From Methylorubrum extorquens (GTDB lineage Bacteria; Pseudomonadota; Alphaproteobacteria; Rhizobiales; Beijerinckiaceae), in assembly GCA_900234795.1 (NCBI GenBank), contig LT962688.1, forward strand, positions 3,420,001-3,452,000: 32,000 nucleotides of DNA, in the 5' to 3' direction. Of this stretch, positions 12,100 through 32,000 are shown piece by piece. Numbering within the stretch: position 1 is the first letter of the stretch; every line of letters begins with the position of its first letter. A program made the translations under genes and the position numbers. The notes under the pieces are model-generated. The model saw only the letters and a list, made by a program, of their open reading frames with translations. It made no database searches and was not told the origin of the DNA.

Positions 12100-15000
12100 C
12101 TATGACATCTGGGGGGATGGCGCGGAGCGCAGCCCGTCCCGGTGATCGACCGGCGCAGCCCCTGCCCTCCCCGTCTCGGGCGAGACGTTCGACAGGGCGG
12201 CCGCGTCGAGCCCGTAATAATCTTCCAGAATCCGCGGGTAGATGGTCGGCTGGAACGGCTCGCGGGCGGCCCAGAGCGCGTCGATGGGAAGCGCGAGCAG
12301 GGCCGCGTTCAGCCGCTGCGGGTCATCGGCCAGCGCCGGGTCGAGGCGGTGCCCGGCCCCGCTTTCGCGCAGCCGCTCGGCCTGGGCACCGAGATCGAAC
12401 ACCACCGGCGGCACCCCCGCGGCCAGCGCCAGCGAGAGCGTGTAGCAGTAGGTCTCCGGCCAGATCGAGGGGAGGAGGACCAGGTCCGGATCGAGCCGGG
12501 CGATCTCGGCGAGCGCCGCCGCGTCGCTGCCGTAGAGACCGGTCTCGCGCACGCCCGCCGCCTCCATCGCGCGCGGCTCGGCGGAGTGGCCGATGATCGT
12601 GAACACGATCGGCAATTGCCGCAGCCGGGCGTCGAGGGCGAGGTTGTGGACGACGTCGTAGCCCTTGTGCGCGCCGATCGATCCGATCACCGCAACCCGC
12701 AGCGGCCCCTCTCGGCGCTGGCGCGCCTTGAGTTCGACGCCGGCCAGCGTCTCTTCGTGCGGGCGCACCGCGATGCGGTCGAGGTGCAGCGTGCTGCCGA
12801 TGCGATCCGCGAGATCGGCCGAGGGGGCGAACACCGTCCGGGCGCGGTCGAGGAACCCGGCCCAGTCCCGCCGCCGCTCAGCGGGATCGGGCAGCACGAT
12901 CCCGTCGGCGTCGCGATCGAGGCGGATGCAGTCGCGGCAGACGGCGGGTTCTGCCAACCCGCAATAGACGCCGTCGGATCGCACGAGATTGTTGCGGTGG
13001 CAGACCGAGGCGTAGTCGTGAAGCGTGACGTCGTAGCCGGTGCCGGCCTCCTCGATCAGCCCCATCGCCACGCGGGTCGAGGGGGCATCGAGCCCCGCCA
13101 GCGAGTGCACATGCACCATTGCCGGGCCGAGCCAGCCGATCAGCTCGGCCAGGAGATCGGCGTCGCGGTCGAGGGAGAGCGGATCGAGGATCGAGACGGG
13201 GAAGTCGATCCCGCCCGATCCGGGCAGGCCGAGCCTGAACCCGCCGGGCTCGTCGGTGCGCAGATAGACGACGGCGAGACCGGCCTCGGCGAGCCGGAGG
13301 CTCAGCGCCTCGATATGGGTCTCGACCCCGCCGCCGAAATCGTGGGTCACGATCAGGGCGATGCCGCGCTCGGCGCTGGCCGTGGCGCGCTTGGCGAAGC
13401 GGTAGAGGTCGAGGCGGCGCCGGGCGAAGCGCGCGGGATCGACCTCGATGTGGTTGTGGACCCGTCGCTGGTAATCGGGGTGCTTGGTCAGGATCGCGCG
13501 GAAGATGTCCGCGCCCTTGGTCGCGAGCAGCGCGCCGAAGGAGACGCTGCCGGAGTGGAACACGAAAATGTCGTGGGCCAGCACGTTGGTGAAGCCCGCC
13601 TTGAGGGCGCGCATGCAGAAGTCGTTCTCTTCGCCGTAGCCGCGCCCGAAGGTCTCGGCGTCGAGGAGCCCCACCGCCGCGATCGCTTCCCGGCGCATCG
13701 CCATGCAGAAGCCGACGCCCGTCGGCACCGGCGAACTCGTGCGGGCGTTGCAGGCGCGGGTGAAGGCGTCGATCTCGGCGGGCATGATCTCGAGCCGGGC
13801 CTGATTGTCGACGTTGGGCCGCGGATAGCTGCAGATCGTGGCGTTGTTCGAAAACGGCGTGACCGTCGCGACGCGGGGGTCGGCGTCGAGGTGCCAGAGC
13901 AGGCGGTCGAGCCAATCGCCGTAGACGACGACGTCGGCATTGAGGAGCACGACATCCTTGCCTGCGGCGAGTTCGAGGCCGCGGTTGCAGGTCCGTACGA
14001 AGCCGAGATTCGCCTCGTTGACGAGGTGAGTGAAGAGGCCGCGGCCGCCGAGGTCGGCCAGAGCCGCGCTCAGGCGCGGATCGGGGCTGCAATCGTCGAT
14101 GACGAGGAGGGCGAAGGGCGTGGCCTGCTTCTCGCTCAGCACCGAGTGGATCGCCCGCAGGGTGTCGTCGTAGCCCTTGTAGACGGGCATGATCAGCACG
14201 ACCCGCGCCGCTGCGATGTCGGCGGCAGGCTGCGCCTGCTCCCACTCGGCCGGGGTCGGCGCGACCTGCGCGGGCCAGGTTCCGAGACCGAACGGTGTCG
14301 GCCGGAAGCCGCGCGCCCGGCCCACCGCGAGGTAGTGGAAGAACGGGTTCACCCCGGCCCCGATCTCCCGCCGGTAATGCTTGCGGTAGAAGCGCACCGA
14401 GAAGTCGGGGCTCGGGTCGCGATCCTCGCGGGCGCCGAAATCGAGGAAATGGCGGACCGGATCGATGCCGGAGCGGCGGATGTCGGGATTGGAGTCGAGG
14501 TAGTGCTCCCGGTCGAAGGCCGCCGCCACCGTCTCGTAGATCTGCGCGTCGGAGGCTTCGGCCGGGTCGGCGGGAAGCAGTGCTGCCTGCGGCTTGGTGC
14601 GCCGCGCGGGCGGGGCGGCGGCCTCCGAGGCCTGAAGCCGTCGCGTGGCGGCAAAATGATAGAGCGGGCTGACGCCGAGGCGCCGCATATGCGCGTGGCG
14701 CTGGAGGTAGGCGTCGCCCGAGAAGGCGTCGTTCGGGTCGAGCCCGCGCCGCCAGCCCTTGGTCAGGTAGTGGGAGAGCGGGTCCTCGCCTCCCTCGAGG
14801 CCGGCGAGGCGGGCATAATACGGCGCATCGAAATAGGGCTCGACCACGCCGGCCTGGAGCGACGGAAAATCCGGACCCGGCTGCGTCGCGACCCGCAGCC
14901 GCTCGGTCGGCGAGAGCGCCGCATAGTGGAGAAGCGGGTTGATCGCCGCCCGGTCGGCGAAGTGGCGGTCGGCGTAGAACAGCGTCGAGAACACCGCGGA

Positions 15001-19452: not shown

Positions 19453-19915
19453 GCCTTGATCCTGCCGGGACGACTTGCGGCAAGCTAGGGCAAGGACGGC
19501 GCTTTGGAAATCGGGCGGCTTGCTCAAACCTTTGGCAGAACGCGTTTTCTTGGCGGCCTCCGTCATGAAACCGGCCCGGAGCGGCGCCGCGAGACGCTTG
19601 TTCGGAGACGCTCCGGGCGGGGGACGCCGGGCGCGAACCTTCCCGCGAGCGGCGGAGGACAGGACTGAGCGGGATGTGCGGCCGGCAAAGACCCGGAACG
19701 ATATGACCGGGCGCACCGTTTCTGGCGCCCGAGCCGACAGCTCACGCCGCCGAGAGACGTTTCGACCCTACACCGCGATCACGCATCCCGAAATTTGCAC
19801 TCCGCTCTCGTCGCCCACTTACGACGAAGCGGAAAATTTTTGCCTTTTCCAATAACTCGCCGTGTTAATCTGCCGTTCATTGCAGCGTTTTGTTCGATTT
19901 CGATGCATATTTCTT

Positions 19916-19941
19916 GGAACGGTATTCCGGACCTCTCCGTT
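19916..19941 (+). promoter_or_regulatory. EcfG-type (general stress response ECF sigma) promoter-like motif GGAAC-N17-CGTT
   Basis: GGAAC at 19916-19920, a 17-nt spacer, then CGTT at 19938-19941, 38 nt upstream of the ATG at 19979. It matches the published alphaproteobacterial EcfG consensus GGAAC-N16-17-CGTT. Confidence 0.5.
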
Positions 19942-19978
19942 CTTGGTCCCGCAACAACCGAAACACTTGGAGGAATAC

Positions 19979-20383
19979 ATGCTCAAGCATATTCGCCTTG
20001 CCGCTCTCGCCAGCACCTTCGTCATCGGCAGCGCCGCACTCGCGTATGCCCAGTCGTCCTCGACGACCGGTACCGGCGGCTCGTCGGCGGGCGGCGGCAC
20101 CAGCTCCTCGACGGTTGGGACCGGTGGTTCTTCCGCTGGCTCGGGCAGCGGCTCGGGCTCGACGCTCGGCACCGGTGGCTCGTCGGCCGGCGGCGGCACC
20201 AGCTCCTCGACGGTCGGGACGGGCGGATCCTCGGCCAGCAAGAGCGGCAGCGGCTCGTCGACGGGCACGGGCGGCTCCACGTCCGGCACGTCCGATAGCG
20301 CGGGCAAGTCGGGCAGCGCTCCGGGTCATGACAAGAGCGGCCCCGGAAACTCCGAGAACGCTCCGGGCCACAACAAGCGCTAA
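19979..20383 (+). CDS. secreted Gly/Ser/Thr-rich low-complexity repeat protein (134 aa)
   Basis: GGAGGAA lies 5 nt before the ATG. Sec signal MLKHIRLAALASTFVIGSAALAYA|Q. The mature part is almost only G/S/T, with an internal 33-aa duplication (GSSAGGGTSSSTVGTGG twice). Confidence 0.7.
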   Translation: MLKHIRLAALASTFVIGSAALAYAQSSSTTGTGGSSAGGGTSSSTVGTGGSSAGSGSGSGSTLGTGGSSAGGGTSSSTVGTGGSSASKSGSGSSTGTGGSTSGTSDSAGKSGSAPGHDKSGPGNSENAPGHNKR

Positions 20384-20403
20384 GCCTCGGCCGGCGTAAT
20401 TGC

Positions 20404-20429
20404 GGGCGCGGTTCGGACGAACCGCGCCC
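20404..20429 (+). terminator. hairpin terminator after the Gly/Ser-rich gene
   Basis: GGGCGCGGTTC-GGAC-GAACCGCGCCC, an 11-bp perfect stem 21 nt after the stop, followed by GTCTC (weak U-tract). Confidence 0.55.
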
Positions 20430-20430
20430 G

Positions 20431-20520
20431 TCTCAGAGCACCTCGCAGAACGTCCGGGCGCCGACCATCGCCGCTCCGGCTGCGGGGTGCATGGGGGTTT
20501 TGTGAGAAACACTCATCATC
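20431..20520 (+). promoter_or_regulatory. conserved hairpin leader element, copy B (stem 20442-20456 / 20492-20506 plus conserved 3' box)
   Basis: Homologous to 15401-15493. The stem keeps 14 of 15 pairs, 4 of them as G-U wobbles that only pair on the plus-strand RNA. The 3' box GTTTTGTGAGAAACACTCATCATC ends 16 nt before the ATG at 20537. Confidence 0.45.
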
Positions 20521-20536
20521 TGAGGAGAGACGCACC

Positions 20537-20914
20537 ATGGCACGTGTGATCCGACCGCTTCTCGGCGCCACACTCGTTCTGGCCGGCATCGCCGCGAGTC
20601 AGGCCCAGACCAGCACCGTCAAAACGGGCCCGAACGGTGTCGCCGGCAGCACGACCGTCACGACCGGGCCCAACGGCAAGCCGTGCCGGCTCGTCCAATC
20701 CGACGATGCCAACACCTCCGGCACGCTGTCGAGTTCGGTCACGGCCGGCCCCGACGGGGTGAAGAGTTCCACCACCGGCGGCCCGTCGGTGACGACGCGA
20801 TCGGGCAGCGGCACGACCAGCAGTTCCGCCTCCAGTTCGAGCACCGGCAGCGGCAGCACGATGACGACAACCGGTGACGGCAACTGCGTGGTCACCGTAC
20901 CGAGCAAGAAGTGA
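20537..20914 (+). CDS. secreted Ser/Thr/Gly-rich low-complexity protein (125 aa)
   Basis: GAGGAGAGA precedes the ATG. Signal peptide MARVIRPLLGATLVLAGIAASQAQ. Repeated TGPNG/GPDG units and an S/T-rich tail, with two Cys. Confidence 0.65.
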   Translation: MARVIRPLLGATLVLAGIAASQAQTSTVKTGPNGVAGSTTVTTGPNGKPCRLVQSDDANTSGTLSSSVTAGPDGVKSSTTGGPSVTTRSGSGTTSSSASSSSTGSGSTMTTTGDGNCVVTVPSKK

Positions 20915-27903: not shown

Positions 27904-27990
27904 GCGGACGTGGCGAAACCGGTAGACGCACGAGACTTAAAATCTTGCGGCCGCAAGGCTGTGCGGGTTCGAGTCCCGCCGTCCGCACCA
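27904..27990 (+). tRNA. tRNA-Leu (anticodon TAA), type II with long variable arm, CCA encoded
   Basis: Hand-folded. Acceptor stem GCGGACG/CGTCCGC. D arm GCG-AAACCGGTAGA-CGC. Anticodon stem CGAGA/TCTTG with loop CTTAAAA. Variable arm CGGCCGCAAGGCTGT. T arm GCGGG-TTCGAGT-CCCGC. Discriminator A followed by CCA. Confidence 0.85.
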
Positions 27991-28133
27991 ACACTTAGCT
28001 CGGTTTGTGGTTCAGGTTAGATCGCGTCGGGGTAACGCTGAGGGTAACAGCGACACGACCTCTAGCAAGCCGACCGGACCGGTGATTTGCCGCCGGGCGC
28101 GACAATGGACCGCTGGAGGCACCAGCGAAAAGG

Positions 28134-28304
28134 TCAGGCGCTGGCGACGCCGGCACGCTCAGCGAGGGCGCGTGCTCGGTTCATCTGCCTGACGGAGGCG
28201 TGCCACAGCGCCTCGCCGATCCAGCCCAGCACGAGGGCGAGGTGGAGCAGCGCGACGGCGAACCGGACGCGGCTCCTGGCTCGATAGACGAGGATCAAGC
28301 GCAT
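28134..28304 (-). CDS. small hydrophobic hypothetical protein (56 aa)
   Basis: ATG at 28304 overlaps the end of the upstream ORF. The product MRLILVYRARSRVRFAVALLHLALVLGWIGEALW contains one predicted TM helix. Weak evidence. Confidence 0.35.
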   Translation of the reverse strand: MRLILVYRARSRVRFAVALLHLALVLGWIGEALWHASVRQMNRARALAERAGVASA

Positions 28305-28534
28305 GACCGGCCCTCGCACTCAGCCGCGACCTTCAGGGCAGCTTCCCACTGAGCAGCCAGCTTCCGCCCCCGTTCCCTGAGAAGGTCCGCCATCAGGTGC
28401 AGCTCTGCACCTTCGACAACCACGTCAGACGAAGCCATGTGAGAGAGGACGGCGCCGATCCGCTCAATGTCCTTCACGTCGCCTTCCATGTCGGCGATTT
28501 CGGTCCAAGCCCCTCGGGCGGGAGACGGCCTCAT
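28295..28534 (-). CDS. hypothetical protein (79 aa)
   Basis: ATG at 28534 overlaps the upstream TGA (TGATG). Acidic helical product with normal composition and no recognised domain. Confidence 0.45.
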   Translation of the reverse strand: MRPSPARGAWTEIADMEGDVKDIERIGAVLSHMASSDVVVEGAELHLMADLLRERGRKLAAQWEAALKVAAECEGRSCA

Positions 28535-28929
28535 CACCACTCCTCCCGCCAGTTGCAGCCCACAGCGCTCAAGACGAGAGCGGCGCGGGTGGAGGCCAGC
28601 GCCTCACCGCCATGATGATACTGCGCGCCGGGATTAGCCGCCGGGATGTAGTCGCCTGCCGTGGCCGGGCCCTTCGGCCTGCCCTCGCGGTCGTACATCT
28701 GCATCACGAAGGGCTGATGCAGGCGGTAATTCATCTCCGTGTTGCGGTAGCGCTCCCATTGGAGAAAGCGCCGCTCGAATTCGAGCCAAGCATCGTAGCT
28801 GTCGAGCAGGCTTTCCGTGATGGGGGCGGCAACCGCAGTCGGGCTGCCGATGAGCGTCACGCCGCCGCCGATCAGCGGAAGCGTGGCGAGGTCGCGGAGG
28901 AAGCCGCGACGGGATGCAGGGGCGCTCAC
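28534..28929 (-). CDS. hypothetical protein with twin-arginine (Tat) signal (131 aa)
   Basis: GTG at 28929 overlaps the upstream stop (GTGA). N-terminus VSAPASRRGFLRDLATLPLIGGGVTLIGSPTAVAA fits S/T-R-R-x-F-L plus an h-region and AxA. Confidence 0.55.
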   Translation of the reverse strand: MSAPASRRGFLRDLATLPLIGGGVTLIGSPTAVAAPITESLLDSYDAWLEFERRFLQWERYRNTEMNYRLHQPFVMQMYDREGRPKGPATAGDYIPAANPGAQYHHGGEALASTRAALVLSAVGCNWREEW

Positions 28930-29246
28930 CGGAGGCCAGCCAGCAATTCGGCGTGGCGGGTCAGTTGCTCGTCCATGCCGTCCCAATCGCCGAGACCGTT
29001 ATCGTCGGTTAGGCCCTCGGCGTCTGGCTCGCCCTCAAGATCGCAGTCAGGCGTCAGCGCGTCGAGCAAGGCGATGCCCGCCTCGATCCGGTCGGCGATG
29101 GCGCGGCGCAGATCACGGATGCGGGGCTGGTCCGGATCTGCTGCCAGCATGACCCGCAGGGCATGCGTAACGGGCCCGATCTGTGGCTTGGGCGAGCGAG
29201 ACCGTTCACCGGCTCGTGCCGGTGCTGTAGGGTGGTGGATAGCCAT
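28926..29246 (-). CDS. acidic hypothetical protein (106 aa), first gene of a four-ORF minus-strand operon
   Basis: ATG at 29246, divergent from the RHH gene. The product is rich in Asp/Glu/Leu (DCDLEGEPDAEGLTDDNGLGDWDGMDEQL). No recognised domain. Confidence 0.5.
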   Translation of the reverse strand: MAIHHPTAPARAGERSRSPKPQIGPVTHALRVMLAADPDQPRIRDLRRAIADRIEAGIALLDALTPDCDLEGEPDAEGLTDDNGLGDWDGMDEQLTRHAELLAGLR

Positions 29247-29312
29247 GGGACGTCCTCAACTGACGTTGCTGGTCAGGGCTGAGACGGAAGTTGCACCTTC
29301 CCCTCAGTCCGC

Positions 29313-29364
29313 TTTTCGGTTAAACCAAAAAGCATGCTGATGTCAATTCCGGTTGAACCGAAAA
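29313..29364. promoter_or_regulatory. two 19-bp imperfect palindromes TTTTCGGTT-N-AACCGAAAA (putative operators of the adjacent RHH repressor)
   Basis: Site 1 is TTTTCGGTTAAACCAAAAA (29313-29331). Site 2 is TTCCGGTTGAACCGAAAA (29347-29364). The outer half-sites TTTTCGGTT and AACCGAAAA are exact reverse complements. The centres are 33 bp apart and straddle the RHH start codon. Confidence 0.5.
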
Positions 29365-29525
29365 GGCGAGGCCGTCCGGCCACAGGGCGCGACCCGCTCG
29401 TTGGGTTTCGTGCGCCTGCTGACCTTCTGGCGCAGCTGGATGCCTATGCGGCCAGGGAAGGGCTAAAGCGCTCAGAGGCTATTCGCCGTCTCGTCGAGGA
29501 GGCGTTGAGGGCGAGGCAGTCCTAA
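29334..29525 (+). CDS. ribbon-helix-helix (CopG/Arc-like) DNA-binding protein
   Basis: 63 aa. The product ...RGRPATGRDPLVGFRAPADLLAQLDAYAAREGLKRSEAIRRLVEEAL shows the beta-strand/helix/helix pattern of RHH regulators and antitoxins. Confidence 0.75.
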   Translation: MLMSIPVEPKRRGRPATGRDPLVGFRAPADLLAQLDAYAAREGLKRSEAIRRLVEEALRARQS

Positions 29526-29581
29526 GCAGCTCTATTGAGGAGGCGCCATGAAAGATGTTGATAACGCCGGGAGAATGAGGC

Positions 29582-29872
29582 TTAAGCCGCCTCCCGAGCA
29601 GCCTCTCTTGTAAGTCTCATTTTGATCATGTCATTTATTTGCTTTGTTGAATTGACGATTTTTAAGTTCGTTTTAATTTCTTCAAGCGCCATAATCTGAA
29701 GAAGCGGCACAAATGCAGCATTAACGAATGCTGAAGTCGCAATATCTATGCCCGCAAACGAGATCGTGACGTTTCTGCCACCCTTCAGATGGCCTGAAAG
29801 CATGTCATAAACAACTTGGCCTTGCTCCCCCGTGTATGCGCCAGGGAGAATGTCGATCAGATTGATCACCAT
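29582..29872 (-). CDS. STAS-like small protein (DUF4325-like), 96 aa
   Basis: AT-rich ORF. The product MVINLIDILPGAYTGEQGQVVYDMLSGHLKGGRNVTISFAGIDIATSAFVNAAFVPLLQ resembles DUF4325/anti-sigma-antagonist-like proteins. Its start overlaps the upstream GHKL gene by 7 nt. Confidence 0.7.
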   Translation of the reverse strand: MVINLIDILPGAYTGEQGQVVYDMLSGHLKGGRNVTISFAGIDIATSAFVNAAFVPLLQIMALEEIKTNLKIVNSTKQINDMIKMRLTREAAREAA

Positions 29873-30756
29873 GCTAGATCCTCCGGCTCGTCATCTACGA
29901 AGGTTATTGTATCAGTTCTTAGAACTATGTCGATTGTAGTTCCTGGGCAGAAACCTGGAACCTGACTGGGTATGATCTGGTATCCGCCCTCCCAGGGAGA
30001 GAAACGGACCATACCATTGAAAGATGATATAGTCACTTCTCCGCCATTCATACATACGACGGTTTGAAGCAGGAAATCCAAGCCAATCCCTCTATTCCGC
30101 GGGGTACTGCGCGTAGAGAAATCGACTTCAACGGCTTTCGCTATTGCTTGGTTGTCGGTCAGTCCTCTTACGACCTTTTCTACATTAGATGGAATTCCTA
30201 CTCCAAAGTCAGCAATAGCAATCTTCACGCGCTTTAAGTTTGGAAAATGTTGAGCGAAAATGCTGCCGTTTTCTCTCGATGAGTGATCTTGTATGTTGAT
30301 AAATATCTCGGACAGGCACGCTTGGAAGGGGTGCAGTGATGCTTTGCTTATCCCCAGAGTTGACGCAAGCCATGGTGTCAACTTCATCTGTATGAAGCTG
30401 TGGCTTTCAGAATGCTCAACCCGTCGAAGGTGCTGAGTCGTTCCCCGAGGAGAGCTATATGGATAGACCTTCTTGCCCAGATGCTGTTCAAAGAACAAGG
30501 AGTCATCAAGAAAGGCAATGCAGGCGGCTGGTCTATTGTAGTTGACAAAGCCGCACTTGATGCTTTTGTGATGCAGCCAATACACAAAATTACTGAGAAA
30601 GGTGATGCCTGCCGGCTCAATAAAACCTAAAAAATGAAAATCAAGTATAACCTGGGCGGGAAGGGTTTCCCCGCATCTATTTATGAAATCTTGCACTACG
30701 CCGCGTAGGGTATCGGTGTTCAGGCTGTAGGGAAGAGCAATTGTTATTTCTGACAT
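29866..30756 (-). CDS. STAS-like N-terminal domain + GHKL (HATPase_c, RsbW/SpoIIAB-type) ATP-binding protein, 296 aa
   Basis: AT-rich ORF. N box LSEIFINIQDHS, G1 box IADFGVGIP, G2 box RNRGIGLDFL, then GGEVTISS...GTTIDIVL. The N-terminal VILDFHFLGFIEPAGITFLSNFVYWL is STAS-like. Confidence 0.75.
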   Translation of the reverse strand: MSEITIALPYSLNTDTLRGVVQDFINRCGETLPAQVILDFHFLGFIEPAGITFLSNFVYWLHHKSIKCGFVNYNRPAACIAFLDDSLFFEQHLGKKVYPYSSPRGTTQHLRRVEHSESHSFIQMKLTPWLASTLGISKASLHPFQACLSEIFINIQDHSSRENGSIFAQHFPNLKRVKIAIADFGVGIPSNVEKVVRGLTDNQAIAKAVEVDFSTRSTPRNRGIGLDFLLQTVVCMNGGEVTISSFNGMVRFSPWEGGYQIIPSQVPGFCPGTTIDIVLRTDTITFVDDEPEDLAW

Positions 30757-30896
30757 TTGGCGCCCCGTGTCGACGGGACGCTTATAGTGCTATGGGTCTA
30801 CATGCTAGTGTTTCGTGGCAACATGGCTCTAAACCCTTTGCACGCACGGTCCGATCCGGTGATGCGAGCTGCCGTGTGGTGACTTCTTTGGAGTGT

Positions 30897-31499
30897 TCAG
30901 CCCCGGTAGTCGGCCGTCCGCCGGAACCATATCAGCGGCGCGTCCCGGTGCATTCCCGGCAACGCTACGAGGTCAACGAGCTGCCCGTGCTGAACGTCGT
31001 CGGCGTCGCGTACCAGCTTCTCGGGGGGCGCAAGCCAAGGCGCATCAGCCGGCCGGCCAGGATTGGCAGCCTTGATCTGCTCGTTGCAGGCCATCACCCG
31101 CTGTAGGATCTCAGTGATCGCAGCGGCGTGCTTCGGGTACTCCTCACGAATGAGAGCCGCGCAAGCGTCCCGCTCCTTCACTGCCGCCTCATAAGCTAGG
31201 CGCCCTCGCTCCGCCGCCTCTGCCCGCTCCACTTCAGCGAGCTTCATGTTGAGCCGCGCGATGGATGAGGTCGTCCGCTCTTCCTCGAAGCCTAGCCGGT
31301 GATGCGCCTCACGGGCTCGATCGGCCTCTTCCAGGCTGGTGAGGGGATCGACCGCCGTCGCTTTGGCGGCGATCAGGTCGGCGCGGATGCGCTCCAGGTC
31401 GAGCTTGAGGTCGGAAATCAGCGCCGTGATCTGGCCGGATGTGCGGGACTCCGTGAGCGCCGCACGAACCTGATCCGTGAGGGGAAGAACCTGCTGCAT
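30897..31499 (-). CDS. coiled-coil hypothetical protein (200 aa)
   Basis: ATG at 31499 overlaps the upstream TGA (TGATG). The central region is heptad-like (LISDLKLDLERIRADLIAAKA...IARLNMKLAEVERAEAAERGRLAYEAAVKERD). No family recognised. Confidence 0.55.
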   Translation of the reverse strand: MQQVLPLTDQVRAALTESRTSGQITALISDLKLDLERIRADLIAAKATAVDPLTSLEEADRAREAHHRLGFEEERTTSSIARLNMKLAEVERAEAAERGRLAYEAAVKERDACAALIREEYPKHAAAITEILQRVMACNEQIKAANPGRPADAPWLAPPEKLVRDADDVQHGQLVDLVALPGMHRDAPLIWFRRTADYRG

Positions 31500-32000
31500 C
31501 ACTTGCCCTCCTGCCAAGCGTTGCGCTGCCGCTCGCACATGCGCTCGTACTCGGTCGCGGCATCGCCAAGCGGCTGAGCGTCATGGGTCTGAGGCATTGC
31601 CGCTGCGCCGGGTGCGGTACCCAGCGGTGTCCTCCAGGCGTTCGCCTGTTGCTCGTTCATCTCCGCTCGGGCACGGGCGCCAGCATCCCGATCGATGCCC
31701 GTGCTCACGCTGGTGTCGCCCTGCGCCCAGCGACCGAGAAGCGTCGCCTCAATGGCCGGGGCTTGGTCCGCAAGCGCCGTGAGGAAGTCGAAGCCGATCT
31801 TGGGAAGCCGAGCATCGCCCATGGTCGTGCGGCCCATCTGAGCGCCGTATTGCCACGACAGGTCGCGGGCACGCTGTCCGGCCTGCCGAACCCGGAATGT
31901 CTCGTTGGACTGAAGGTCGGCAATGATGGAGGCCACCTGCGCCGCCTCGGGTGATGGGATCGCGTCCATGAAGCCCATCGGGGGCGTGATGTTGTTGGCC
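31499..32000 (-). CDS. hypothetical protein, C-terminal part (frame open to the window edge)
   Basis: The frame stays open from 32000 down to the TGA at 31499-31501, and the composition is normal. The M at 31978 may be internal. No family recognised. Confidence 0.45.
   Translation of the reverse strand, partial: ANNITPPMGFMDAIPSPEAAQVASIIADLQSNETFRVRQAGQRARDLSWQYGAQMGRTTMGDARLPKIGFDFLTALADQAPAIEATLLGRWAQGDTSVSTGIDRDAGARARAEMNEQQANAWRTPLGTAPGAAAMPQTHDAQPLGDAATEYERMCERQRNAWQEGK

Follow-up and report, generated by a model that had tools for sequence, protein, structure and literature searches.

A two-gene kinase–STAS pair from a Methylorubrum prophage-like element as a candidate mobile conflict module of the CapK/CapS–VapK/VapS type

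What does a small AT-rich pair of genes do at the end of a GC-rich prophage-like element, and to what kind of system does it belong? The question is raised by a 32,000-nucleotide (nt) stretch of the Methylorubrum extorquens genome (GenBank assembly GCA_900234795.1, contig LT962688.1, positions 3,420,001 to 3,452,000 of the forward strand; hereafter the window), in which two overlapping minus-strand open reading frames (ORFs) encode a 296-aa protein with a GHKL-type ATP site and a 96-aa STAS-like protein. We call these proteins, and their genes, K and S. Both ORFs, each opening with ATG, lie exactly where an initial annotation of the sequence had placed them (Table 1); that annotation read them as an orphan partner-switch pair on foreign DNA and as a candidate defence or conflict system. 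Based on our computational analysis, we propose that K and S constitute a horizontally mobile two-gene conflict module of the CapK/CapS–VapK/VapS type, which may serve superinfection exclusion, abortive infection or addiction. Reasoning by analogy with the experimentally studied relatives, we give this reading a probability of roughly 0.55. Its parts are not equally firm. Sequence comparison makes the homology of K to VapK and of S to VapS near certain, and the two-gene architecture is near certain as well, while a function in defence, argued from the relatives, is plausible at about even odds.

Kinship with the VapK and CapK kinases

CapK/CapS and VapKSC were described by Chambers et al. (EMBO J 2026; PMC13373217). 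CapK, a helix-turn-helix (HTH)-STAS-GHKL kinase activated by single-stranded DNA (ssDNA), phosphorylates Ser54 of CapS, a repressor that joins a STAS domain to a winged helix-turn-helix (wHTH), and this phosphorylation de-represses adjacent immune operons; the couple is regulatory and responds to DNA damage (PMC13373217). VapK, with a STAS-GHKL layout, is proposed to phosphorylate VapS on Ser48 and thereby to free the PIN toxin VapC, and VapKSC protects E. coli approximately 100-fold against one phage, a protection abolished by each of the substitutions VapK F54A, VapS S48A and VapC D28A (PMC13373217). Phosphorylation was demonstrated directly in the case of CapK/CapS and is deduced from mutants and a model in the case of VapK/VapS; VapK Asn160 was modelled at the active site, and the Asn that was mutated is CapK N218 (PMC13373217). 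VapK was reported as insoluble rather than toxic, the toxin of the system being VapC, whose active site is reached by a C-terminal VapS helix (residues 94-116) on which antitoxin activity depends (PMC13373217).

The alignment of K with VapK spans nearly the whole protein. A BLASTP comparison gives 25% identity over residues 24-282 (expect value, E, 1e-13), and hhalign of the K family profile against VapK returns a probability of 99.5% with E 3.7e-22 across 271 columns that correspond to K residues 3-283. The VapK, VapS and CapK sequences were taken from the appendix of PMC13373217, and a five-residue offset of VapK relative to the numbering of the paper was corrected by means of N160 and K180/K181. 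In this register VapK Phe54 is equivalent to K Phe45, VapK Asn160 to K Asn154 and VapS Ser48 to S Ser47. S and VapS match by BLASTP with E 3e-9, Ser47 being aligned with Ser48, and Escherichia VapS (9z7o_A) is also the best match of S in the PDB. The hhalign match of K to CapK has a probability of 85% and takes in some 54 columns, in the N-box/G1 region only. The pair is thus not an orphan in kind, as it had been labelled, since it falls within the CapK/CapS–VapK/VapS superfamily. The same kinship makes an ssDNA-triggered switch operating through substrate phosphorylation likelier, judged from the sequences, than the classical partner switching that the label implied.

Is K a genuine GHKL protein? 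We consider this assignment secure on the combined strength of sequence and model. The N box and the G1 (IADFGVGIP) and G2 (RNRGIGLDFL) motifs named in the initial annotation are found at K residues 148, 181 and 220, and E150, N154, D183, G185, G223 and G225 do not vary across the 127 family representatives (full-length proteins, one per 50%-identity cluster), a pattern that shows the ATP site to be intact at the level of sequence. Pfam HATPase_c matches K over residues 145-247 with 22.1 bits, under its cut-off of 26.4; many K relatives carry precomputed matches to PF02518 or PF13581. An AlphaFold2 (AF2) model built from a 23-sequence alignment reaches a predicted local distance difference test (pLDDT) value of 88 and a predicted template-modelling score (pTM) of 0.86, and every significant Foldseek match of this model in the PDB is a GHKL domain (Hsp90-N, GyrB), with template-modelling scores that are low since the query has two domains and that do not separate kinase from ATPase. 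Among viral models Foldseek returns one clear homologue, J7KH07; the other matches are generic GHKL and RIIA proteins. Against the PDB the K family profile finds, weakly, the P4 domain of CheA (E 0.0015) and SpoIIAB (E 0.014), and a search of NCBIfam with K and S gave no match above any cut-off. The full-length alignment with VapK points the same way, and K matches the phage family phrog_3364, also over its full length, with E 5e-35.

The STAS-like stretch that had been noticed ahead of the GHKL domain is real, but it is shorter than the ~130 residues first attributed to it: in the AF2 model a beta-alpha-beta-alpha-beta topology occupies approximately residues 1-95. Profile matches of this region are weak and sub-significant, and comprise the prestin STAS domain, RsbS and SpoIIAA (E ~0.5 for these two), and the slr1659 superfamily. 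We take its landmarks to be F-I-x-P-x-G, against F-M-D-S-S-G in SpoIIAA, and L-D-D-S-L-F-F, against F-D-M-S-G-L-F. Pro48 of K occupies the position of the SpoIIAA phospho-serine and is kept as Pro in 100 of the 127 representatives, so that the internal STAS domain of K would not be phosphorylatable at the canonical site. Position 45, the counterpart of the phenylalanine that VapK needs for protection, is Phe or Trp in 113 of the 127.

A further feature of K is its C-terminal tail, which is acidic, predicted to be disordered (pLDDT below 50 at residues 293-296) and marked by the hallmark E-[DE]-[FL]-x-W-COOH. Of the 127 representatives, 124 have W296 and 105 have E292; in a set of 190 K members Trp is the last residue in 141, and the final ten residues contain on average 4.4 acidic ones. 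The sampled VapK family has an ending of its own, 38 of 120 members closing with -PF, for example DEPPF, DDVPF or EDLPF, and the form -[DE]-x-P-F is frequent among them. The C-terminal tip of the single-stranded DNA-binding protein (SSB) is DDDIPF. Both the K tail and the -PF tails of the VapK family resemble this tip in sequence, which suggests that the K tail might be an autoinhibitor that mimics ssDNA, or a means of docking onto the SSB interactome. Part of the S start codon is supplied, in the window, by the TGG codon of W296; however, the overlap of the two genes does not by itself explain the conservation of the tryptophan, because it is also kept in Bacillota members in which it is not the last residue.

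S is a DUF4325/STAS-like protein, as had been surmised: Pfam PF14213 matches residues 17-78 with 40 bits against a cut-off of 23 (E 3.2e-10), and the phage family phrog_9989 matches with E 5e-23. The protein is 100% identical to a Methylorubrum extorquens protein. It ends four residues past the aligned STAS domain and is devoid of the C-terminal helix of VapS. Homologues of S were gathered from the genome loci of K, a direct homologue search with the 96-aa query having given two proteins. They are mostly 92-105 aa long, and 116-119 aa in loci of the VapK family. The residue aligned with the VapS phospho-acceptor is Ser in 71 and Thr in six of 78 homologues.

A two-gene family and how it may act

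How widespread is the pair, and does a third gene travel with it? A scan of one genome per species with two peptide patterns, whose carrier counts are lower bounds, found the family in at least 158 of 185,579 species genomes, patchily distributed over at least four phyla. An exhaustive profile search matched the K profile to 350 clusters at 50% identity with E<=1e-30 and to 2,956 with E<=1e-10. We examined 80 loci, from Alpha-, Beta-, Gamma- and Deltaproteobacteria, Bacillota and Leptospira. An S homologue directly follows K in 77 of them; two of the remaining three loci are at contig ends and one is degenerate. The two genes overlap by 7 nt in 48 of the 77 loci, as they do in the window (heptamer ATGGTGA, at 29866-29872), and by 10 nt in a further 17, an arrangement compatible with translational coupling. 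That 77 of 80 unrelated genomes repeat the pair and its overlap means that the association is not due to chance. All-versus-all clustering of the ORFs within 10 kb brought out K and S as the only common genes, the next cluster being present in at most nine loci, and a phmmer search with VapC detected a PIN gene in 0 of 80 loci. As a control, VapK-family genes of E. coli and Paraburkholderia are followed by a 116-119-aa DUF4325 protein and a PIN gene. The gene downstream of S runs in the direction of the pair in 35 loci and against it in 41. The claim that the pair is self-contained therefore holds, and so does the statement that a sigma factor, a PP2C phosphatase or a recognizable effector is absent from its vicinity: none is found in the island within the window and none recurs around 37 representative loci.

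The uniformity of this arrangement bears on a first alternative, namely that K and S are the decayed remnant of a VapKSC or CapK/CapS system that has lost its effector and persists as functionless cargo. The lack of an effector at K-S loci and the shortness of S compared with VapS are what such decay would leave behind. Nevertheless, the two-gene form is the same in proteobacteria, Bacillota and Leptospira, the family comprises hundreds of clusters, its catalytic residues are invariant and its tail is conserved and family-specific. The K and VapK families moreover form separate similarity groups, with a median best cross-family score of 75 bits and a lowest best within-family score of 189 bits, a pattern that random decay would not yield. 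Uniform form, wide spread and a separate similarity group argue together for a stable architecture, and we regard the remnant explanation as very improbable. We thus interpret the pair, from its sequence relationships, as an effector-less variant of the VapK/VapS–CapK/CapS superfamily.

A second alternative is a housekeeping role, in which K would be an anti-sigma kinase of the RsbW/SpoIIAB type that, with S as its antagonist, governs a stress sigma factor. A GHKL and STAS pair does recall SpoIIAB/SpoIIAA, and several family members have been annotated by the Joint Genome Institute as 'anti-sigma regulatory factor (Ser/Thr protein kinase)'. This explanation is hard to reconcile with the missing sigma factor and PP2C genes in cis, with the fused N-terminal STAS domain that makes K twice the size of RsbW, with the marginal match to SpoIIAB, and with a pair that is carried by phages and found in ~0.1% of species. 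Nor are the homologous pairs consistently placed in core sigma-factor or phosphatase operons around the 37 loci. The view of the initial annotation that the pair does not exert housekeeping sigma control is borne out by cis neighbourhood, phage carriage and patchy distribution alike, and an anti-sigma role seems to us highly unlikely.

How might a kinase and its substrate operate by themselves? Extrapolating from CapK and VapK, K would be inactive until it binds ssDNA arising from phage replication or DNA damage, the nucleic acid being held between its STAS and GHKL domains, near Phe45. The target of active K would be Ser47 of S, which opens helix 2 of the STAS fold, and phosphorylation there would alter the binding of S, switching it off or turning it away from a binding partner. 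By analogy, phosphorylation of Ser47 by K is probable, and an ssDNA trigger has about even odds. Two outputs can be envisaged. Either K is the effector and S its inhibitor, or a buffer or sink for phosphate, in the manner of a toxin-antitoxin couple, or S controls a protein encoded elsewhere.

We advance tentatively, and as something rather unlikely in this full form, the notion that K-S represents a hitherto undescribed, perhaps large, branch of the CapK/VapK superfamily whose effector is the kinase. The substrates of an ssDNA-sensing K would be phage or host proteins, with S as a stoichiometric inhibitor or phosphate buffer, and the tail would function either as an ssDNA-mimicking autoinhibitor, displaced by genuine ssDNA, or as a tether to the SSB interactome at replication forks. 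Weak support for K as effector comes from disrupted loci. A frameshift or an insertion interrupts K next to an intact S in five of 79 loci (L034, L046, L064, L066 and L085 in our numbering), and S is missing in one only (L022), where K is also without its C-terminal tail. At L034 the two K fragments are ~2.9 kb apart. If the kinase is indeed the effector, the pair would be a minimal immune sensor and effector made of two proteins and carried by phages.

The same loci can be viewed in another light, that of a pure addiction module without sensing, in which a toxic K, kinase or ATPase, would be paired with S as labile antitoxin, the two stabilizing the carrier element. Small, overlapping, AT-rich genes with a patchy occurrence on prophages and as islets suit this proposal, as does the decay of K with persistence of S (five loci against one). 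The relative VapKSC is itself toxin-antitoxin-like, but its toxin is VapC rather than the kinase, and VapK was described as insoluble, not as toxic (PMC13373217). A kinase-first gene order and a conserved phospho-acceptor in S indicate an enzyme and its substrate, and the pair is nearly absent from plasmids (nine of 72,556 records, mostly fragments). Pure addiction is accordingly a doubtful explanation in our judgement.

Setting of the cassette in phages and chromosomes

The cassette is set apart from its surroundings by base composition. Its G+C content (GC) is 46.1%, versus 69.0% in window positions 1-29500 and 66.8% in 30900-32000, and the counts on which the initial annotation relied are reproduced exactly (49 of 60 nt at 12301-12360, 19 of 60 at 29641-29700 and 27 of 60 at 30601-30660). 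At a resolution of 100 nt the low-GC block covers K, S and the 140 nt upstream of K, and nothing more. These 140 nt are the presumed site of the cassette's own promoter; a consensus scan of 29300-31000 for promoters and terminators yielded no more than shuffled controls did and, within 30757-30896, no promoter. Low GC is a property of the family as well: in 75 of 79 homologous loci the pair falls more than 3 GC points short of its flanks (median -11.5 points). It persists even at conserved chromosomal sites, downstream of pncB and downstream of a MiaB-like gene, and recent transfer alone is consequently not a sufficient explanation of the AT-richness.

Table 1. Features of the K-S cassette and its surroundings in the window (positions of the 32,000-nt stretch).
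Feature	Position	Strand	Basis
tRNA-Leu(taa), boundary of host genes and prophage-like element	27904..27990	+	ARAGORN
Terminal ~4 kb of prophage-like element, continuing past window end	27991..32000	.	Public contigs, PHROG
Ribbon-helix-helix (RHH; CopG/Arc-like) repressor gene, 63 aa, convergent with S, prophage backbone	29334..29525	+	Pfam RHH_1 29.7 bits, PHROG
GC-discordant block delimiting the cassette, 32-56% GC (100-nt windows) within 61-72% GC prophage backbone	~29550..30900	.	Composition
S gene, 96-aa DUF4325 STAS-like protein, VapS homologue without C-terminal helix	29582..29872	-	Pfam, PDB, BLASTP, phrog_9989
Ser47 of S, candidate phospho-acceptor codon	29732-29734	-	Alignment with VapS Ser48
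K gene, VapK homologue, 296-aa predicted kinase with STAS-like domain fused to GHKL domain	29866..30756	-	ORF, HATPase_c match, hhalign, phrog_3364, AF2 model
K/S overlap, K stop codon with S start codon, ATGGTGA	29866..29872	-	Sequence
Predicted disordered acidic C-terminal tail, K residues 283-296, ends with Trp296	29869..29910	-	pLDDT, conservation
GHKL (Bergerat-fold) kinase domain, K residues 107-280	29917..30438	-	Invariant residues, Foldseek, profile matches
K G2 box	30070-30099	-	Within GHKL domain
K G1 box	30190-30216	-	Within GHKL domain
K N box	30280-30315	-	Within GHKL domain
N-terminal STAS-like domain, K residues 1-95	30472..30756	-	AF2 topology, weak profile matches, residue mapping
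Intergenic stretch 5' of K, 140 nt, within low-GC block	30757..30896	-	Composition

What is the element at whose end the cassette lies? The tRNA-Leu is flanked on one side by a host FAD-monooxygenase gene and on the other by genes of the element, which confirms the tRNA-linked island of the initial annotation. Public contigs with an identical pair extend the element beyond the window and reveal AAA_25, a small serine-recombinase resolvase, a terminase-like 470-aa protein, a tail assembly chaperone (TAC), a 635-aa tape-measure protein, a 352-aa head-maturation protease (Pa193_gp24) and a 200-aa protein, which is followed by K, S, four small genes and finally the tRNA-Leu with the host genes. 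No second attachment (att) copy of the tRNA-Leu 3' end is present in the longer public contigs, which do not reach the far end of the element. Discordant in GC, the cassette is inserted in a prophage-like element at the end nearest the tRNA-Leu, where it is carried as a moron, and the description of this DNA as foreign is upheld. Proximity to a tRNA is a minority feature of the family, a tRNA or tmRNA being within 2 kb in seven of 60 homologous loci.

The RHH gene next to S, which had been regarded as a relevant neighbour, belongs to the backbone. Its GC is 0.59-0.67, it is convergent with S, its PHROG matches are transcriptional repressors and it is not conserved beside homologous pairs; by GC, orientation and non-conservation it is ruled out as a component of the cassette. 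The ORF is uncalled as a gene in all public assemblies that contain the identical region.

Homologous pairs occur in a variety of phage and island settings. In prophages of the Bacillus cereus group and B. thuringiensis the pair lies between the integrase and a cI-like repressor/AimR; at seven such B. cereus-group loci (L005-L010 and L096) the cI-like repressor is followed by the AimR/arbitrium module, and two different chromosomal integration sites are represented. Streptococcus phages LYGO9, JX01 and the Javan series have the pair between lysin and integrase, and Burkholderia phage vB_E188 between the integrase and a BrnTA pair/portal. Another Methylobacterium carries it at the edge of a Prim-Pol element. 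In an island of a Bradyrhizobium sp. it is accompanied by Beta_protein, P4 cII-like, SNase, SRAP and Schlafen/AlbA_2 genes, of which the Beta_protein and P4 cII-like genes resemble the gop-beta-cII system. A lead from Francisella phage KIRK, in which a 293-aa hypothetical protein precedes a DUF4325 protein between cI and the integrase (PMC7924643), was not corroborated, tblastn having given no Francisella phage record. Outside phages, five Rhodobacterales genera have the pair immediately after pncB, and two more have it after the MiaB-like gene.

These settings are also where a purely regulatory role has to be weighed. The pair might be a sensor of DNA damage (ssDNA) that adjusts prophage or host expression on behalf of its carrier, S or phospho-S binding an unlinked transcription factor, sigma factor or anti-sigma factor. 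STAS proteins with several partners exist, HsbA being an example; the Bacillus pair is directly beside a cI-like repressor and the arbitrium module, the Rhodobacterales pair occupies a fixed site among core genes, and the sister couple CapK/CapS is purely regulatory and DNA-damage responsive (PMC13373217). On the other hand, S consists of a 96-aa STAS domain without a DNA-binding domain, no neighbouring operon or regulator is conserved and the downstream gene takes either orientation at random. Sigma70_r2 is present in two of 284 neighbouring ORFs among the families listed, and the accessory slot differs from phage to phage (after tail genes, after lysin, by the integrase), as is typical of morons. 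A regulatory sensor is therefore possible, though we think it improbable.

We return to the mobile conflict module that we favour. The location of K-S in accessory slots of temperate phages, taken together with the experimentally established anti-phage activity of VapKSC (PMC13373217), supports it. Several observations pull in the opposite direction. The relatives from which kinase activity, activation by ssDNA, toxicity and protection against phage are extrapolated are only ~25-29% identical, and the ssDNA residues K180/K181 of VapK are not strictly conserved in K, where positions 173-176 are variably basic. The proposed mechanism lacks an effector and is to that extent incomplete. No model of PADLOC-DB v2.0.0 matched, K giving only a 16-bit local match to DrmA over its GHKL part and S none, in agreement with the initial view that the pair is not a named defence system. 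The fixed site beside pncB in Rhodobacterales looks more like that of a resident gene than of a mobile defence gene, and the Pfam-annotatable neighbours within 5 kb of the 37 loci are mostly housekeeping genes. One batch of 142 neighbouring ORFs contains three Phage_integrase matches and the other contains at most one, this family being absent from those listed for it, and PADLOC matches around the 37 loci are scattered (one DISARM locus, a few MADS components, PD-Lambda-2_B and capP). The association of homologous pairs with defence genes, which the initial annotation had proposed as a check, is hence weak.

Elsewhere in the window, ARAGORN calls a tRNA-Pro(ggg) at 20615-20706 on the minus strand, which at 92 nt is unusually long, is located inside overlapping long ORFs and may be a false positive. 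A GC dip (0.59) at 19500-20914 precedes two ORFs, 19862-20383 (173 aa) and 20537-20914 (125 aa), whose products are Gly/Ser/Thr-rich and repeat-containing with hydrophobic N-termini.

The pair beside known systems

What are the implications of a sensor pair that travels alone? CapK/CapS and VapKSC established in 2026 that a kinase and its substrate can turn an ssDNA or DNA-damage signal into transcription of an immune operon or release of a toxin. The present cassette adds that a pair of this kind also travels widely without a toxin or a DNA-binding output. Either K or S has an overlooked target, or the pair plugs into partners encoded elsewhere, and each outcome would extend the modular picture of bacterial immunity and would provide two PHROG families and much of DUF4325 with a function. 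The tail that resembles the SSB tip offers a testable lead on how these kinases may read ssDNA. Should the pair prove to be inert cargo or a simple addiction module, its significance would be modest.

As individual proteins K and S are already catalogued in phages, in phrog_3364, phrog_9989 and PF14213; both PHROG families are labelled 'unknown function', and none of these entries records a pairing, a mechanism or a name. With SpoIIAB/SpoIIAA and RsbW/RsbV the pair would share, by analogy, a GHKL serine kinase acting on a serine at the start of STAS helix 2. It differs from them in that no sigma factor or PP2C phosphatase is encoded in cis, in the fused and apparently non-phosphorylatable STAS domain of K, and in being mobile and phage-borne instead of part of a core stress or sporulation operon.

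The closest comparisons are with CapK/CapS and VapKSC, and the pair is neither: a VapC gene and the VapS helix, which define the latter, are missing, as are the HTH, the wHTH and the regulated operon that define the former. Unlike CapK (~362 aa), K at 296 aa has no N-terminal HTH and starts directly with a STAS strand at residues 3-7, and S, which is a STAS domain without a wHTH, cannot be a DNA-binding repressor. Downstream of K-S there is no conserved operon, the adjacent gene in the window being the convergent RHH gene. With CapK/CapS the pair nevertheless has in common a GHKL kinase with an internal STAS domain, a separate STAS substrate, presumed in our case, with a conserved serine, and a kinase gene that comes first. 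From VapKSC it is distinguished by the lack of a VapC/PIN gene at its loci, where VapK-family loci have one, by an S of ~96 aa that is without the VapC-blocking helix, by the low identity and separate similarity grouping of the kinases and by the E-[DE]-[FL]-x-W tail that is K's own. The likeness is equally extensive: K and VapK are both 296-aa STAS-GHKL proteins that align over their full length, S and VapS are both DUF4325 STAS proteins with an aligned Ser/Thr, the kinase gene stands immediately ahead of the STAS gene, and both systems are often found beside integrases.

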